Shown here one piece after another: positions 1 to 6,308 of a DNA stretch of 64,000 nucleotides. The stretch covers positions 1,042-65,041 of the forward strand of contig JADHXQ010000011.1 of the NCBI GenBank assembly GCA_016782885.1, given 5' to 3'. The first letter of the stretch is position 1. Each line of letters opens with the position of its first letter. The notes below the pieces were generated by a model that was not told the origin of the DNA, searched no databases, and saw nothing but the letters and a program-made list of their open reading frames with translations. Position numbers and translations under genes: made by a program. The stretch comes from Phycisphaerae bacterium (GTDB lineage Bacteria > Planctomycetota > Phycisphaerae > SM23-33).

Positions 1-340
1 CAAACCCGCTATTGGCCACCAGCAGGATGCTGGCGGCAGAGGCGAGTACGAAGATTATCCCGAGAACGGCGTCGCGCGGAAGGCGGTTGCTCTCGAATGG
101 ATAGCTCAGCACGATCACGGTTGCCAGTGTCAGCGCCGCGGCGCCGAGGAACGGGTGAATATGACACATGATGGCGGCCGCAATACCGCAAGCCGCAACT
201 TCCGACAACGCGATCCCGATGAAGACAACACGTTTGAGGATCACAAACACACCGAGCATCGCGCAGATTGCGCCGATCACCGCACCGGCGATAACAGCTT
301 CGGGGAACATTTCGAATATAGTCTGCATATTCTCCCACAT
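1..340 (-). CDS. Metal (Zn/Mn) ABC transporter permease, ZnuB/MntB family; runs off the window edge
   Basis: Manual translation from ATG at 340: MWENMQTIFEMFPEAVIAGAVIGAICAMLGVFVILKRVVFIGIALSEVAACGIAA, hydrophobic ABC-3 permease pattern; follows the ATPase gene; AAGGAGG RBS. Confidence 0.9.
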   Translation of the reverse strand, partial: MWENMQTIFEMFPEAVIAGAVIGAICAMLGVFVILKRVVFIGIALSEVAACGIAAAIMCHIHPFLGAAALTLATVIVLSYPFESNRLPRDAVLGIIFVLASAASILLVANSGF

Positions 341-342
341 GA

Positions 343-1086
343 TTACCGCCCTCCTTTCACGCTGTTATCGTTGGCTGTATTACCGGGCGATGCGGGCCTC
401 GCCGGGAACACATCGGACGTTTCGGCCAGGCGGACGCGGCCATGCTCGACGAGACAGATCCGCGCCGGAAGCTCCAGCACCTCGTGCATTCCGTGGACCG
501 CCATGAGAACGGTCTTGCCCTCATCCCGGTTGAGTCTCAGCAGGTGGGCGAAGACCTCCTTTTCGGACTTCTCGTCGAGTTGCGAGGTCGGTTCGTCCAT
601 GATGAAGACATCGGCGCCGCTGACGAACGCCCTTGCCAGCATGGCCTTCTGCTTCATCCCGCCGGAAAGCTCCGAGAATATCTTGTTCGCATGATCGCCC
701 AAACCGAACTCCTCCAGCGCCTTCTGGACGGTCAGTCTGAGTTTCTTCGGTCCGCGGCGCCACCACCCGAGCTTCGGATAAAGCCCCATCGCGGCGATCT
801 GTCGCACGGAGACCGGATACAGCGGATCGATCGTCCGGTGCTGCGGTACGTACCCCGGCGGCGAGGTCCCAAACGGCGTGATGATCTCGCCGCGGCGCGG
901 GCGAATCAGCCCCAGAATCGCACGAAGCAGGGTTGTCTTGCCCGCGCCATTGGGACCGACAAACGGAAGGAACGACCCGCGGGGTATCTCCAGCGATACG
1001 TCGTGGATCACCTCCTGCCGGCCGTAGGCGATAGAAACGTTGCGACAGGTAATTATCGCATCTTTGTTCGATGTTGTTGGAGTCAT
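343..1086 (-). CDS. Metal ABC transporter ATP-binding protein (ZnuC-like)
   Basis: Walker A GPNGAGKT, GYVPQ Q-loop, LSGGMKQK signature, IMDEPT Walker B. Confidence 0.93.
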   Translation of the reverse strand: MTPTTSNKDAIITCRNVSIAYGRQEVIHDVSLEIPRGSFLPFVGPNGAGKTTLLRAILGLIRPRRGEIITPFGTSPPGYVPQHRTIDPLYPVSVRQIAAMGLYPKLGWWRRGPKKLRLTVQKALEEFGLGDHANKIFSELSGGMKQKAMLARAFVSGADVFIMDEPTSQLDEKSEKEVFAHLLRLNRDEGKTVLMAVHGMHEVLELPARICLVEHGRVRLAETSDVFPARPASPGNTANDNSVKGGR

Positions 1087-2123
1087 TTCGTAGCCGCCTT
1101 GCTTATACGATCGACAATCAGGTCTATAAGTGCCAGATAGTCGACAGCTTCCTTCTGTCCGCCTACGGATATCGCGCAGACCACGACGGTAACGCCTGTC
1201 TTCTTGGCCACGAGGTCTGCGGCCTTGCGGTTGTACGCCGGTTCCAGGAGGATCAGACCGACGCCCTCGGCCTTGGCGCGACTCATCACTTTCAGCAGAT
1301 GCGCCCCGCTTGGCGGCACGCCGGGCTTGGGTTCGAGTTCAACCGCTACGATCAGTCCGAATCGGTTGACGAAGTACGACCAGCTCCGATGGTGCGTGAT
1401 GATCTTGCTTCCCCTCAGCGGACGCATGGCGGCCGACCATCCGCCCAGGTCATTGGTAAGCTTCCGGGCGATGAGGTACTCCTGCAGCGTGCCCTTGAGT
1501 TCCATCGCCCACAGCTTCCCCCCGCCGACCTTCCTGGCCAGCACCGCACCGAACATCCGCTCGTCGAGGGCATTCTGGAACGCCGCAAGATTTTTCTCGA
1601 ACGCCTCGGTGTTTTCCGGAGCCAGCTTCGACAGGCGCCTGGCGATCGAGGCGGCGACGATCCGGGCGTTCAGCGGATCGAGCCAATAGTGCGGATTGCC
1701 CTGGGGGTGAACGTCTCCCAGTTCTCGCGTGACCCTGGTCTTGGGCACCTCAAGGCGGAGCACCTTCTCGGACGCGTCGAGATGCCCGGGCTTTCCAATG
1801 CGAATGTTCCTGTTGCGCGACCCGTCGATAATCAGTTCTTCGTACCCGATTTCCAACTCGAGCCCGACCCGGATCCACAGGTCCGCCTTGCGGGCGAGCA
1901 TCATGAAGCTCGGCTTGGCCTGGACGTAATGAGGGTTTTCATATCCGGTGGCGATACTTGTGACGCTAACCTTCTCGCCGCCAACAGCCTGGGCGATCGC
2001 TTTCAGGTCCGTGGTAGTCGTGACGATCTGCAGCTTCTCGGTCTTCGCCGCCGCCAGAGCGGTCCCAGCCGCCGCGGAAGCCAACATCGCTAATATCGTG
2101 CATAGTATTCTTGTGTATTTCAT
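1083..2123 (-). CDS. Metal ABC transporter substrate-binding protein (ZnuA/TroA family)
   Basis: Signal peptide; NPHYVQAKPS, GNPHYWLDP, HHRSWSYF and ELEPKPGVPPS motifs; AGGAG RBS before MKYTR. Confidence 0.92.
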   Translation of the reverse strand: MKYTRILCTILAMLASAAAGTALAAAKTEKLQIVTTTTDLKAIAQAVGGEKVSVTSIATGYENPHYVQAKPSFMMLARKADLWIRVGLELEIGYEELIIDGSRNRNIRIGKPGHLDASEKVLRLEVPKTRVTRELGDVHPQGNPHYWLDPLNARIVAASIARRLSKLAPENTEAFEKNLAAFQNALDERMFGAVLARKVGGGKLWAMELKGTLQEYLIARKLTNDLGGWSAAMRPLRGSKIITHHRSWSYFVNRFGLIVAVELEPKPGVPPSGAHLLKVMSRAKAEGVGLILLEPAYNRKAADLVAKKTGVTVVVCAISVGGQKEAVDYLALIDLIVDRISKAATK

Positions 2124-2155: not shown

Positions 2156-3535
2156 TCAATACTTATGCGCAGGATGCGCACCAAGCCCAAAAATCAACTG
2201 TAGAAAGACCTGGTGGTCTTCGGGCGCGCCGTCCACGTCGAAGTTGCGACGGCTGTATTGATAAGCCAACCGCCAGGAGCAGAATTCGCTCTGAAGAAAC
2301 GTCAGGTAAACCGACCAGGCGTTCTCGTGCAGGTTTTCGTTCTCGGGCCACTGGGAGTAGTCGTACCGTCCGCCGGCGGCCCACTGCCGTGCGAACTGAT
2401 AGTCGACGGCGGTATACAGTCCGACGGTGTTCTCCCGGCGGTCGGCGAGTTCCTTCTGGGCGGCCAGTACTTCGCTCTGCCACGTGAAGGACTTGTACAA
2501 CCCTTTTTGGGGATGGCGCCATTTGTAGGTGACGTCGAGCCCTTCGATCCACGTCCGCCGGCGCCCGTGCCCGTGGTCGTTGGGCGCCGTAGCGCCGCTA
2601 AAACCGACCTCCAGCGTTGAATCGGCGGTGAGGTCGTGGAACGTCTTGAGGTGAGCCAAGTGGACGAAGTCGTCAGCCTCGTGACCCGCGAACATGTTCG
2701 CGTCGTCATTGTAGAGGCTCTCGCAGGTCAACTCGATGTACTTGTCCCACGGGTTTGGAACGAGCCAGCTTACCGAGGCGCCCTCGCCGGCAAGGCCTTC
2801 GGAGCCGAAGTAGTTGCGGACGGCCAGGGGATACTCCACCCACGGAAGAGCGTGCAGATGCCTGGTGTTTGCCTGTCCGAACTTCGCCCGGAACTTTCCG
2901 GCCTTGGCCTGAAGGTCCCAGGGCAGGTCCAGCAGCGTCAAGTACGCTTCTTCGATGTGCAGGTCGTAGTGTGCCCCGTGGGCATGCTCGCCGGGGGCCC
3001 GCTCGTCGTGGTCCTCATCGTGCTCGTGGGACTTGTGAATCCCCAGAAAGATGTCGACCCGCGCGTGGGGATCGATGCTGCCCGAAATACCGATTTCCAG
3101 TTCGCGGAACAACCACTGGTCGTCCAGCTCGCCGCCTTCGCGGCTGTCGTAATGCCCGACGAAGTCGCCGACGACGCTGATCTCGGGGTTGAAGTTCTGG
3201 ATGGCCCGCCCAACGCTGAACCAACCGTCGGAGTTCTCTCTGCCCCCGGCGTCCTCAAGCATTTTGCCCATCACCCCGGCGAGTTCATCTTCGCCGGACG
3301 GTTGGGACTTTCCCGAGGCGCGGGATTTTTCGAGATCATCGATCTTCCTGTTCAGACGATCGATTTCTGTCTTGTGGGCCTCAGACTGGGCCTTGAACAT
3401 CGCGCGGAGTTCCTGAAGCTCCTTTTTCACGCCCGCGATGTCCCCGGCCGGGGAGGGCTTGTCCTGCGCGAAAGCGGGCATTGCCCACAAGACCATCAGC
3501 GCAGGAGCGCACAGGAGAATAATTCGTTTTGCCAT
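2156..3535 (-). CDS. His-rich outer-membrane beta-barrel protein associated with metal uptake
   Basis: Signal peptide, N-terminal coiled coil, NPEISVVGD, His-rich loop HKSHEHDEDHDE...HAHGAH, alternating beta strands, C-terminal GAHPAHKY; first gene of the ABC operon. Confidence 0.75.
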   Translation of the reverse strand: MAKRIILLCAPALMVLWAMPAFAQDKPSPAGDIAGVKKELQELRAMFKAQSEAHKTEIDRLNRKIDDLEKSRASGKSQPSGEDELAGVMGKMLEDAGGRENSDGWFSVGRAIQNFNPEISVVGDFVGHYDSREGGELDDQWLFRELEIGISGSIDPHARVDIFLGIHKSHEHDEDHDERAPGEHAHGAHYDLHIEEAYLTLLDLPWDLQAKAGKFRAKFGQANTRHLHALPWVEYPLAVRNYFGSEGLAGEGASVSWLVPNPWDKYIELTCESLYNDDANMFAGHEADDFVHLAHLKTFHDLTADSTLEVGFSGATAPNDHGHGRRRTWIEGLDVTYKWRHPQKGLYKSFTWQSEVLAAQKELADRRENTVGLYTAVDYQFARQWAAGGRYDYSQWPENENLHENAWSVYLTFLQSEFCSWRLAYQYSRRNFDVDGAPEDHQVFLQLIFGLGAHPAHKY

Positions 3536-3543
3536 TTTGCGTC

Positions 3544-3666
3544 CTTTCCAACAATTGCATGTGGCTGCGCCACAACGATCGGAGAATCAGATCGGTGTCG
3601 GGCGCAAACGGGCCGGACGGGACACAGCAGCGACCCCGCCGGTGTTACACGATGTGAGTTGGAAAG
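3544..3666 (-). promoter_or_regulatory. Putative SD-sequestering RNA stem (anti-SD 3658-3666, SD region 3544-3552)
   Basis: Perfect 9-bp inverted repeat ctttccaac / gttggaaag covering most of the GGAAAGGA SD of the 3535 gene; the other arm lies 5 nt after the RAPP codons of the leader ORF. Confidence 0.6.
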
Positions 3667-4037
3667 CCTGCCGGCGGCGCACGTGAATGAAGGGGCAGAG
3701 GATGGTGGCGGCCGATGGGAGTATCCGCCCGGACAACGGGCGTCGACGGAAGTGTATGCGCCTCGTGATGGTCGACCGCCTCTGAGCACGAGGACACCGG
3801 GCGGGTCTTGAAGAACTCGCAGACGGGACACGAACCGCTCAGCACCGCCTCGCCGCGGGTGTGATGCGAAACGCCCGCCTCCGCATGGTTGTCCGCATCG
3901 CTGTCGTGCCGGAAGCAGTCGGATTGGTGACCCGACGGATGCACCAGAATATGGAACGCATGCACGCCAAGAACCGCGGCGAACATCGCTGCGAAGGCGA
4001 GGATACGGGCTACCGTGATTGTGCTGCGTGACTTCAT
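3645..4037 (-). CDS. DUF2946-like (CruR/CutF-type) leader protein with His-rich region, CxxC and C-terminal RAPP arrest motif
   Basis: N-terminal hydrophobic segment, many His, SCPVCEF, C-terminal HSRAPP; directly upstream of a metal uptake operon. Confidence 0.75.
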   Translation of the reverse strand: MKSRSTITVARILAFAAMFAAVLGVHAFHILVHPSGHQSDCFRHDSDADNHAEAGVSHHTRGEAVLSGSCPVCEFFKTRPVSSCSEAVDHHEAHTLPSTPVVRADTPIGRHHPLPLHSRAPPAGFPTHIV

Positions 4038-4085
4038 GTTGTCTGCCGATACCGCGGAACGCTGAAAGCGGAACCTGCAGACCGA

Positions 4086-4114
4086 CTACTAGCAGGCCCT
4101 CGCGGCCATGTCAA
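4086..4114 (-). promoter_or_regulatory. Possible sigma70 promoter of the metal uptake operon
   Basis: TTGACA-17 nt-TAGTAG with a TGn extension on the minus strand; the -10 box is imperfect. Confidence 0.35.
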
Positions 4115-4350
4115 GTCTATTGTCCCAACCGATGGCGCCAGTTGGGTTGCGCCAAACAAAGGGGTCAGGCGTTGGAATAAAGGTTTCCGCAACCGAAAAC
4201 TGCGTTGAGTTCTCCCGGAGATGGGATAGAATCATTGTAAAGGCCCACGGTGGTCGTCGGCGCGAGTTCATAGGGAATCTCGGATGAGAGCCAACCTCCG
4301 AATTCGAACCCGGCGCCTCGGCTTCATCGAGTTGATTGGAGAACGCGCCC

Positions 4351-4839
4351 ATGCGGGAACAGCGCGGCAGTCGTGATATTGTGAGCCGTAGGTTGGCTGT
4401 ACTTCTGATCATCATTGGGGCGATGTTTGCCGCTGATTCGGTCCTGGAACTGTCGGTGGCGCCGAAGCTGTGGCCCGTGCTGTTGACGATCGTCGCGGTC
4501 GGCCTGATCGGGATCTTCATCAAGCGCAGCGCAAGAGGCGGGGGCTACCTGGGCGGCGGTATTTACCTGCTGTGCTTCAGCGGGTTGGCCCTTTACTGCA
4601 ACTTCGCCGATTGGGCGATGCTCACAGTCCTGTGGCCTGTGTTTATCGTCTTCCTGGGGCTTGCCTTCCTTGCGGTGTTCTTCGCCTGCGGCCGAAACCG
4701 TTGGTATCTCCTGTTGGGCCTGTTGCTGCTGTCGACGGCTGTGGTGCTTTGGTTGTTCCTGGCCCTGAGTGGGCAGTTCTGGTGGACCGCCTTCATCCTG
4801 GTCGGCGTGAGCCTCCTTGTCTGGGAGAGAGGCCAATGA
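4351..4839 (+). CDS. Hypothetical integral membrane protein (LiaF/LiaI-like TM repeats, WP motifs)
   Basis: About six hydrophobic helices, LWPV twice; GGAG RBS; stop overlaps the next start. Confidence 0.7.
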   Translation: MREQRGSRDIVSRRLAVLLIIIGAMFAADSVLELSVAPKLWPVLLTIVAVGLIGIFIKRSARGGGYLGGGIYLLCFSGLALYCNFADWAMLTVLWPVFIVFLGLAFLAVFFACGRNRWYLLLGLLLLSTAVVLWLFLALSGQFWWTAFILVGVSLLVWERGQ

Positions 4840-6308
4840 GTCCAAAACGAGTGATCTTCATCGAGCCGTCTGCCAACAAGACCAACGTGTTCGATAGTTA
4901 CATGCGATTGCCCCTTATGGGCTCGCTCTACCTTGGTACTATTCTGCACGAACACGGTTACGACGTGCGTATCCTGAACGAGAACATCATGGGCCGGGAG
5001 ATTGACGCGTTCGAGATACCAGCCGACGTATTCTGCCTGACAGCCCTGACCGGCAGCGCCAGCCGCACCAAGTACCTCGCGGCCTACCTCAAGCGCATCT
5101 ACCCGGCGGCCAGGGTCATCGTGGGGGGCATTCATGCCTCTCTGCTCCCGGAGGAGTTCACTGATGTGGCCGACCATGTCGTCGTGGGGGAAGCCGAGGA
5201 GATCATTGTCGACCTCGTGGAGGGCCGATTTGACGAGAAGATCGTCCAAGGCCGAAAGGTCGCTGACATGGCACGGTTGCCCCTGGTGCGGTACGACCTG
5301 CTCGATGGATACCGGAAACTGGACCTTATCCCCCTGATGACCTCGCGGGGCTGCCCGTTCAACTGCAATTTCTGCACCGTAACCAAGGTTTTCGGACGGG
5401 AGTTCAGGATGCTGTCCCCCGAGCGGGTCCTGACCGAGATCGAGAATGCCCTTCAGTACTTCAGTACGCGGGACTTTTTCTTCTATGACGACAATTTCAC
5501 CGCCGACCGGAAGCGTCTGGCTGATCTTTGCGATCTGCTCATCGCCAGGCGCGTGGGCATCACTTGGGCGGCACAGGTGCGAACGGACCTTGCCCGGCAC
5601 CCGGACCTGGTGGAGAAGATGGCGCGGGCCGGTTGCCGGTGGGTCTACATCGGATTTGAATCCATCGAAAACGAGACGCTCAAGGCCCTGCGCAAGAGCC
5701 AGACCCGAGCAGACATCGAACAGGCCATTACCGTATTCCACCAGTTCGGTCTGAACATCCACGGCATGTTCATGTTCGGCGAGGATCACGACGCGCTCGA
5801 TACCTTCCCGCAAACGGTGGCTTTCGCCATCGAGCACCGGATCGACACCGTCCAATTCATGATTCTGACGCCGTTTCCCGGAACGGAATATTACGAGCGA
5901 ATGCTCGCCGAAGATCGGCTCCTGCATACGGACTGGGACTACTACAACGCCATGTTCGCGGTATTTCAACCGAAGAACATGAGCGCGCTGAAACTCCAGA
6001 CCGAGACATACAGGGCATACGGGAAGTTCTACTCGTTGCGCAGGACGGCTTTGGACGCCCTGTCGCTGACCGTAAACGTTCTGCTGGACGCGCTGGTATG
6101 GAACTTCGGACGGGCCCAGCGGCACAACCTCGACACGATCTTCATCCGGGGCGGGGCCAAAGCCATCGTGCTGAAAGGCGCACGTACGTCCGACAGCTAC
6201 TTGCGTTTCCTCGGCGAAGCCGAGCAACGCAAGCTGCTGCATGCCGGAGGGAAGAATGCAACCACAACGCCCCTCCCCGCCAACATCGCCCCACACCGCG
6301 ACGCATAA
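4836..6308 (+). CDS. Cobalamin-binding radical SAM protein
   Basis: VGGIHASL B12-binding motif, SRGCPFNCNFC CxxxCxxC, FYDDNF, IGFES, ILTPFPGT; ATGA overlap with the upstream gene. Confidence 0.9.
   Translation: MSPKRVIFIEPSANKTNVFDSYMRLPLMGSLYLGTILHEHGYDVRILNENIMGREIDAFEIPADVFCLTALTGSASRTKYLAAYLKRIYPAARVIVGGIHASLLPEEFTDVADHVVVGEAEEIIVDLVEGRFDEKIVQGRKVADMARLPLVRYDLLDGYRKLDLIPLMTSRGCPFNCNFCTVTKVFGREFRMLSPERVLTEIENALQYFSTRDFFFYDDNFTADRKRLADLCDLLIARRVGITWAAQVRTDLARHPDLVEKMARAGCRWVYIGFESIENETLKALRKSQTRADIEQAITVFHQFGLNIHGMFMFGEDHDALDTFPQTVAFAIEHRIDTVQFMILTPFPGTEYYERMLAEDRLLHTDWDYYNAMFAVFQPKNMSALKLQTETYRAYGKFYSLRRTALDALSLTVNVLLDALVWNFGRAQRHNLDTIFIRGGAKAIVLKGARTSDSYLRFLGEAEQRKLLHAGGKNATTTPLPANIAPHRDA

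Follow-up and report, generated by a model that had tools for sequence, protein, structure and literature searches.

We analyzed a 64,000-nucleotide (nt) stretch of DNA, hereafter the window, from a Phycisphaerae bacterium (assembly GCA_016782885.1, contig JADHXQ010000011.1, positions 1,042 to 65,041), whose minus strand carries in one run a 130-residue open reading frame (ORF), a 109-nt spacer, and genes for a porin, a substrate-binding protein, an ATPase and a permease. Judged from its sequence and that of its relatives, the 130-residue ORF is best explained as a DUF2946/CruR-like leader that regulates in cis, and not as a conventional protein-coding gene. The loci compared show the predicted leader, a barrel with a modelled porin fold and a three-His ZnuA-type importer to be a conserved module across Planctomycetota. 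It is fairly probable that ribosome arrest at the RAPP motif of this leader frees the porin gene's Shine-Dalgarno sequence (SD) and that metal binding ends the stall.

The leader translation begins with a basic and then hydrophobic N-terminus (~16 hydrophobic residues), is His-rich overall, and reaches HSRAPP (RAPP at nt 3683-3672) 8 codons before a TAA at 3647-3645, with a spacing of exactly 45 residues between its CxxC motif (CPVC) and RAPP. The reading frame, the hydrophobic N-terminus, the many His residues and both motifs are all present as the initial annotation had described them. In Bordetella CruR, copper sensed by a CXXC motif relieves an arrest at RAPP, which leads to Rho termination before the gene of a TonB-dependent transporter, and the CXXC-RAPP distance in DUF2946 proteins is given as 45, conserved within 1-2 residues (Roy 2022). 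The proposed link of the leader to DUF2946 (PF11162) holds in extent and falls short in score: the match spans positions 3-117 of the 117-position profile at 16.8 bits (E 0.012), below the gathering score of 23.7 bits, which counts against the assignment. DUF2946 is matched at E <= 0.1 by five of the 11 leader orthologues and by 9 of the 16 module leaders described below, and two distant relatives reached through the profile, P0014 with 27.7 bits and P0017 with 24.8, clear the cut-off. The motifs and their spacing place the leader, as a divergent member, in the known DUF2946/CruR/CutF family.

The 11 orthologues (54-100% identity) all retain SRAPPA and CPVC. When the orthologue profile was compared with 1.84 billion representative proteins, just 10 reached E <= 0.001, and across 20 proteins, consisting of the close subfamily and the distant matches from this search, the distance from CxxC to R[AGP]PP is 43-46 residues in every case, 16 of them having exactly 45. 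Relatives are Phycisphaerales/Planctomycetota metagenome-assembled genomes, which agrees with the probable planctomycete of the initial annotation. The close subfamily does not extend beyond the genus, with three real matches in 61 relatives and one in 401 phylum genomes; its profile retrieved no further leaders from the 400 other phylum genomes, and leaders beyond the genus surfaced only via the porin. Weak tblastn leader matches in three genomes (G047, G036, and G031; E 0.0014-0.008) were taken to be spurious, with no ORF combining RAPP and CxxC.

Among leaders adjoining porin homologues, a set of 16 was aligned, comprising those of the window, of three close relatives (L007, L008, and L013) and of 12 further loci in the class. 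All 16 have Cxx[CH] 44-45 residues before RAPP or RGPP, and nothing is invariant across the alignment except the first Cys and the R, P and P of the arrest motif. Mean column identity is 31% and large indels are present, and the distance to the C-terminal RAPP is nonetheless fixed; such constancy amid poor sequence conservation fits a function of the nascent chain. The arrest motif is followed by 8 residues in the window leader and by 1-8 at other loci. Its core is RAPP or RGPP, the strongest arrest cores described (PMC12992588), in 39 of the 40 leaders that meet the motif rule, the exception being RPPP at L063. Three distant leaders (L021, L022, and L024) substitute CxxH for CxxC, with the 44-residue distance unchanged, and have an extra hydrophobic segment and Cys flanking RGPP on both sides (C-RGPP-x-C).

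The hydrophobic N-terminal segment and the abundance of His and Cys could also belong to a metal-binding protein that is stable and either exported or anchored in the membrane, such as a chaperone that supplies the porin or the binding protein, in which case RAPP and the RNA helix described below would be non-regulatory; a chaperone role was the first conjecture for CutF itself (cited in Roy 2022). We regard this as very improbable for the leader, given that one Cys and R, P, P alone are invariant in the 16 leaders at a fixed RAPP distance, and that the stall site in particular is complementary to the SD.

To place the leader in its genomic context, we surveyed loci encoding homologues of the porin. 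In the Phycisphaerae set, 13 of 151 genomes have such a homologue, and in 12/12 of the class loci other than the window's own a small same-strand ORF upstream of it terminates 2-8 residues after RAPP or RGPP. A ZnuA homologue is found 3' of the porin in 14 of 15 loci, the exception being truncated by a contig end. At the scale of the phylum, the porin profile matches 186 of 401 sampled Planctomycetota genomes, and leaders were counted in the best 29 loci, allowing a motif spacing of 42-47 residues: 24 of the best 29 carry a leader upstream under this strict rule, and 27 carry a same-strand ZnuA gene after the porin. Three of the five loci lacking a strict-rule leader have <=227 nt of upstream sequence, L052 has a variant RAPP leader, and L050 has none. 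Where contexts are longer, they contain the leader, the porin, the binding protein, the permease and sometimes the ATPase, followed by unrelated genes; the neighbourhoods at L032 and L034, scanned for a clue to the metal, likewise have unrelated genes past the importer. The arrangement that the initial annotation had read from a single locus, a leader preceding a non-TonB barrel and a ZnuABC-type importer, thus recurs with all three parts conserved together.

Two of these loci depart from the usual layout. At L050:1-1640 the porin homologue without an upstream leader is preceded by ORFs that we take, by sequence reading, to be CrcB-like and DUF190-like. At L018:662-720 an intact RAPP leader is followed by a long perfect hairpin and then by a porin ORF missing about its first 150 residues, possibly a deletion or insertion scar. 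Look-alikes of the porin also occur in Acidobacteriota and other phyla, as judged from protein clusters.

The AlphaFold2 (AF2) model of the window porin (mean predicted local distance difference test score, pLDDT, 79.2) has an N-terminal coiled coil and a barrel of ~16 strands, and Foldseek matches it to general and specific porins with template-modelling (TM) scores of 0.4-0.5 on the query. It has no Pfam match to TonB-dependent transporters and its modelled fold differs from their 22-strand barrel with plug, which bears out the assignment of a barrel outside the TonB-dependent class. The family has at least 579 members, all without a Pfam family, and several conserved His. Compared with the family consensus, the window's clade has a far longer His/Asp/Glu-rich loop (window 2950-3040, residues about 165-195), for which the confidence of the model is low. 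The next gene encodes a binding protein that matches PF01297 at 9e-45, with Synechocystis ZnuA (1PQ4, 2OV1) as its best solved relative. Its H65, H145, and H245 are invariant in 16/16 sequences and align with the PH, PHxW, and HxSW motifs of that protein, and an additional H139 (GDVHxxGNPH) is near-invariant; unlike Synechocystis ZnuA, it is without the His-rich acidic loop, and a 45-residue insertion splits its domain. With a PF01297 binding protein bearing His ligands, an ABC-3 permease and an ATPase, the importer resembles ZnuABC, and barrel and importer together are a candidate route for zinc or another metal across the planctomycete outer membrane.

At the window locus, CUUUCCAAC (3666-3658) is the perfect complement of GUUGGAAAG (3552-3544) over 9 base pairs (bp), exactly as had been claimed, and begins 6 nt past the last Pro codon, i.e., with 5 nt between. 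The porin SD, GGAAAGGA (3549-3542), lies 6 nt upstream of the porin ATG (3535-3533). In the minimum-free-energy fold, the 9-bp helix is accompanied by a 5-bp helix of 3651-3647 with 3558-3562, corresponding to the nearby stem extension that had been suggested, and by pairing of the RAPP codons with the start-codon region. Of the genome's 36-nt windows, a fraction of 0.00116 match the 24 nt preceding the ATG by perfect complementarity over >=9 nt, and 11 of 388 same-locus control windows (0.028) pair as well by duplex energy. Pairing of the SD with the stall-proximal 45 nt has a probability of 0.76, a value attained by 1 of 100 shuffles, and forcing the first 22 nt to be single-stranded, as a mimic of the ribosome, raises the probability that the SD is unpaired from 0.24 to 0.54.

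The same region was then compared across loci by setting the 36 nt from the Arg codon of the arrest motif against the 24 nt before the porin start, the latter chosen by eye from the translated frame at the first 15 loci and by a fixed rule at 24 phylum loci. Cognate pairs of stall site and SD outperform 20000 of 20000 permutations, both for all 39 loci (summed pairing -641.0 vs. -510.9 +/- 16.9 when permuted) and for the 24 independent phylum loci (-382.5 vs. -323.4 +/- 13.4). A match in GC content between the stall window and its own SD could mimic this signal, and the window was therefore slid along the leader: z is -7.5 at the Arg codon, -6.3 at -12, -5.0 at +12 and -0.8 at +24, with +0.1 at -156, +0.3 at -120 and -1.9 to -3.4 at the other offsets from -192 to -24. 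The stall window ranks within the best 5% of same-locus controls at 6 of the 15 loci and 8 of the 24 phylum loci. The mean probability of SD pairing with the stall site over the 15 loci is 0.516, compared with 0.263 for shuffles (top replicate mean 0.374), and blocking of 22 nt raises SD accessibility by >0.1 in 17 of the 39 loci.

Minimum-free-energy folding yields the helix for the window and for L007, and a consensus fold that also includes L008 contains it, with its register shifted among the three. Other loci pair through unrelated sequences, L021 over 13 bp and L023, L026, L036, and L056 through long helices, and L019 also uses a sequence quite different from that of the window. The anti-SD at the stall site is thus frequent and tied to position, without being universal: it is missing from L013 and from about half of the phylum loci, which may rely on Rho or on other structures. 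The expectation that RAPP and the stem would be conserved at homologous loci is borne out in part, in that RAPP or RGPP is kept in the leaders and pairing recurs at the stall site over the 39 loci, and fails in part, in that not every locus pairs and covariation of the stem is not seen in the close loci.

Several further results weigh against gating of the SD by the stall site. For the window locus taken alone, the evidence that the helix exceeds chance is mixed: its duplex energy is matched by 5.6% of random genomic 33-mers, a weak null, and the whole 181-nt fold has a z of -1.61, with 11 of 200 shuffles as stable. A ribosome covers about 15 nt 3' of its P site, and by this estimate one halted at RAPP would cover no more of the 9-base anti-SD arm than roughly its first 5 bases. 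Since Pro-Pro codons are rich in C, they are expected to show generic complementarity to a purine-rich SD, and the shuffle null is already 0.26. At 10 of the 24 phylum loci the stall window pairs worse than the median of its own controls, and blocking lowers SD accessibility by >0.1 in 2 of the 39 loci and shifts it by <=0.1 in 20. Closer to the window, no compensatory double changes in the helix were found among the three close loci, the minimum-free-energy fold of L008 omits the helix (P 0.18), and the divergent orthologue L013 has no helix (P 0.00, with 97 of 100 shuffles equal or better). At L013:4405-4570, a 12-nt piece of the leader's last codons recurs in the 209-nt spacer, and either copy could pair with a partner ~50 nt upstream of the start codon.

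On the strength of the weak energy nulls and the missing compensatory changes, the 9-bp match could be read as following simply from the conservation of Phe-Pro codons and of the SD, without any gating by RNA; its UUUCC core is encoded by F125, which is invariant, and P126, which is present in 8 of 11 orthologues. Such an origin is the least probable of the readings weighed here, given the register shifts in L007 and L008, the unlike sequences used by L019, L021, L023, L026, L036, and L056, the permutation and positional tests in favour of specific pairing, and the low genomic frequency of a match of this length.

The sequence of events that we favour, in which arrest opens the porin SD, would begin with the nascent leader chain stalling the ribosome at RAPP while its P and A sites hold Pro codons. 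This geometry is carried over from CruR, which arrests with Pro codons in these sites, and from the observation that RAP located in the P site prevents a bond from forming with Pro-tRNA at the A site (PMC10951233; PMC12992588). At the stall, the CxxC motif 45 residues back would be just clear of the exit tunnel. In mRNA free of the ribosome, the segment that begins at the Arg codon and ends at the stop codon would pair with the porin initiation region, with the 9-bp helix as its core, closing the 109-nt spacer into a domain and hiding the SD. A ribosome held at RAPP would occupy or unwind the 5' arm, so that the SD opens and the porin and the coupled ZnuA-type importer are made; plentiful metal would bind the nascent Cys and His motifs and end the arrest, upon which the ribosome would terminate, the helix re-form and uptake be switched off. 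Rho may contribute at the C-rich 3' end of the leader. We infer the arrest itself, the sign of the response and the metal, for which zinc is most likely and copper next.

Both halves of this scheme have precedents, and the leader most likely joins the logic of CruR with the RNA device of CutF and SecM. Like CruR (Bp2923, Bordetella pertussis), the leader is a small gene heading an operon for metal uptake, with a putative export segment at the N-terminus, CxxC, 45 residues, RAPP near the C-terminus and a long structured spacer before an outer-membrane transporter gene, and its expected logic is the same, with arrest keeping uptake on and metal ending the arrest. Unlike CruR, it has 8 residues after RAPP instead of 3 and precedes a porin and an ABC (ATP-binding cassette) importer instead of a TonB-dependent transporter; CruR senses copper and has been shown to act through Rho, the main text making no mention of an SD helix. 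CutF (Rhodobacter capsulatus cutFOG) has a Sec-type N-terminus, with which the putative export segment of the leader may be compared, and shares with the leader a Cys motif and, in silico at the window locus, an SD-shielding stem, which a stalled ribosome is proposed to melt. In the published account of CutF, however, the anti-SD lies in an intergenic stem-loop, whereas here it is made up of codons of the arrest site and those immediately following; its motifs are CxxxC and a C-terminal PPP, and copper induces the stall, with a detoxifying multicopper oxidase as cargo. SecM, ApdA, and ApdP resemble the leader in having a RAPP or RAGP core near the C-terminus of a small protein, exported in their case and putatively so here, and in secM-secA the stalled ribosome opens a helix hiding the downstream SD, as proposed here. 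They differ in monitoring Sec or YidC and preceding sec or yidC genes, where here a porin-like barrel follows, and in having no metal motif and no fixed 45-residue spacer.

Since Rho coupling is demonstrated in CruR, the closest characterised relative with RAPP, CxxC, and the 45-residue spacing (Roy 2022), the same arrest could act here through Rho, with the SD helix auxiliary or incidental: the stalled ribosome would shield a Rho-utilisation (rut) site, and release by metal would let Rho terminate transcription before the porin. We consider this alternative unlikely, if less so than the others weighed here. The last 150 nt of the leader have a C/G ratio of 1.55, with a peak of 2.5 in a 78-nt window, and ratios among 15 loci range over 1.02-2.23; the genome encodes Rho, the spacer is long, and about half of the phylum loci are without a stall-site anti-SD. 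The rut site is putative, however, and control by Rho alone does not require complementarity to the SD to peak at the stall site over 39 loci; the two mechanisms are also compatible and not exclusive.

The response could also have the opposite sign, with metal inducing or prolonging the stall and the operon switched on under metal excess, as is described for CutF, a DUF2946 member with an SD-shielding stem-loop (10.1101/2025.02.05.636593; PMC9973294). For the window operon this is very improbable, in that its cargo is an uptake system whose induction under excess would be harmful, and in that the leader has the CxxC and RAPP of CruR, not the CxxxC and PPP of CutF.

Which metal would be sensed is a matter of weighing cargo against family, and the two disagree: the family members tested sense copper and the cargo looks zinc-type, so the signal is uncertain, a further point against the scheme favoured here. 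The preference for Zn, Ni or Co over Cu in the initial annotation is backed indirectly. The metal cannot be assigned from the importer sequence because no NCBIfam equivalog cut-off is reached. Zinc appears the likeliest choice while falling short of probable, favoured by the three-His ZnuA-type site, by the His-rich leaders and porin loop, and by the lack of a detected Zur-like gene; all other metals taken together would be a less likely signal, and copper, considered on account of family precedent and CxxC, a little less likely again. No Zur-like gene was found in the genome, which is 90.9% complete, and the one Fur-family gene found (L031:859-1893) scores best against PerR models, under their cut-offs; the ORF directly downstream of it is presumably rubrerythrin-like. 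Regulation of ZnuABC by Zur is the textbook case, and at the window importer a leader peptide is proposed to act in its place. A second, canonical ZnuA with a His-rich acidic loop is encoded with an ATPase and a permease at L028:366-3739, its gene starting 4 nt before the end of the preceding ORF, which we take to be QueD-like and which itself follows an ORF that we take to be a QueE-like radical-SAM protein. We hold only tentatively the more specific proposal of a nascent-chain sensor of zinc, not copper, that directly gates a dedicated outer-membrane metal porin and the importer of the window, a ZnuABC-type system additional to the canonical one, through an anti-SD in the arrest codons.

The features of the operon and its leader are collected in Table 1. 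No RNA family or known riboswitch was matched at E <= 1 when 3300-4400 was compared with Rfam, and a scan for intrinsic terminators called none in the spacer between leader and porin, the hairpin following the leader stop codon included; its sole minus-strand call lies upstream of the leader, at 4200-4183. A sigma-70 scan gave one match only, on the plus strand, and the operon is therefore given no promoter. Divergent from the leader, window 4336-6308 on the plus strand contains an ORF for a 167-residue multi-pass membrane protein and then a long ORF with CxxxCxxC, which by sequence reading we take to resemble a radical-SAM enzyme.

Table 1. Predicted features of the leader, porin, and importer operon, in window coordinates.
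Feature	Position	Strand	Basis
Leader ORF, 130 residues, divergent DUF2946/CruR-type upstream ORF for an arrest peptide	3645..4037	-	Translation, Pfam, 11 orthologues
N-terminal hydrophobic (export- or anchor-like) segment, residues about 10-25	3963..4010	-	Read off translation
CPVC codons, residues 70-73, candidate metal-binding motif	3819..3830	-	Sequence, alignment
RAPP codons, residues 119-122, predicted arrest site	3672..3683	-	Sequence, alignment
C-rich, G-poor stretch at leader 3' end, possible Rho-utilisation region	3641..3718	-	C/G 2.5 over 78 nt
Anti-SD arm CUUUCCAAC within the final codons of the leader	3658..3666	-	Sequence, fold
5' arm of second helix, CGUGU, overlapping the stop codon, pairs with 3558-3562	3647..3651	-	Minimum-free-energy fold
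Conserved hairpin right after the leader stop codon	3613..3642	-	Consensus fold of window, L007, L008
Second internal hairpin, intergenic region	3563..3609	-	Fold
Porin SD region, GUUGGAAAG (3552-3544) overlapping SD GGAAAGGA (3549-3542)	3542..3552	-	Sequence, fold
Outer-membrane protein, 459 residues: signal peptide, coiled coil, porin-type beta-barrel, His-rich loop	2156..3535	-	AF2, Foldseek
ZnuA-type (cluster A-I) substrate-binding protein, three invariant His	1083..2123	-	PF01297
ABC ATPase, start overlapping the stop of the binding-protein gene	343..1086	-	Pfam, translation
ABC-3 permease, 5' part, gene continuing beyond the window	2..340	-	Pfam, translation

Judged against CruR, CutF, and the studies of arrest cores, the leader is of a known kind. 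The novelty that had been claimed for this switch is accordingly reduced on the side of mechanism, where both the metal-relieved RAPP arrest of CruR and the stall-melted SD stem-loop of CutF are published, and stands on the side of cargo: the main texts of Roy 2022, PMC9973294, and PMC12992588 contain no mention of zinc, a porin or ZnuA (their supplements may list such members), and no paper in the searchable literature joins 'arrest peptide' with 'ZnuA'. What appears to be new is the planctomycete-wide module of leader, porin and importer, the location of a predicted anti-SD within the arrest codons, and a cargo that may point away from copper to a different metal.

Only 'a few' DUF2946 genes were reported from Planctomycetes (Roy 2022), and the leader family is larger than Pfam shows, with nearly all of the best 29 porin loci carrying a leader. 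The cargo, a His-bearing barrel with a porin fold and a three-His importer paralogous to the canonical ZnuABC, is undiscussed for the DUF2946 family in the searchable texts. The 39 loci constitute a natural covariation set that ties arrest codons to sequestration of the SD, and suggest that coupling of the CruR type and of the CutF type are two ends of one design. If the signal is zinc, this would be a new way of sensing it; should the zinc-sensor proposal be true, the leader would provide the first case of arrest-peptide control of zinc uptake and the barrel the first metal-selective porin of its fold, with the leader doing the job of Zur in many Planctomycetota.

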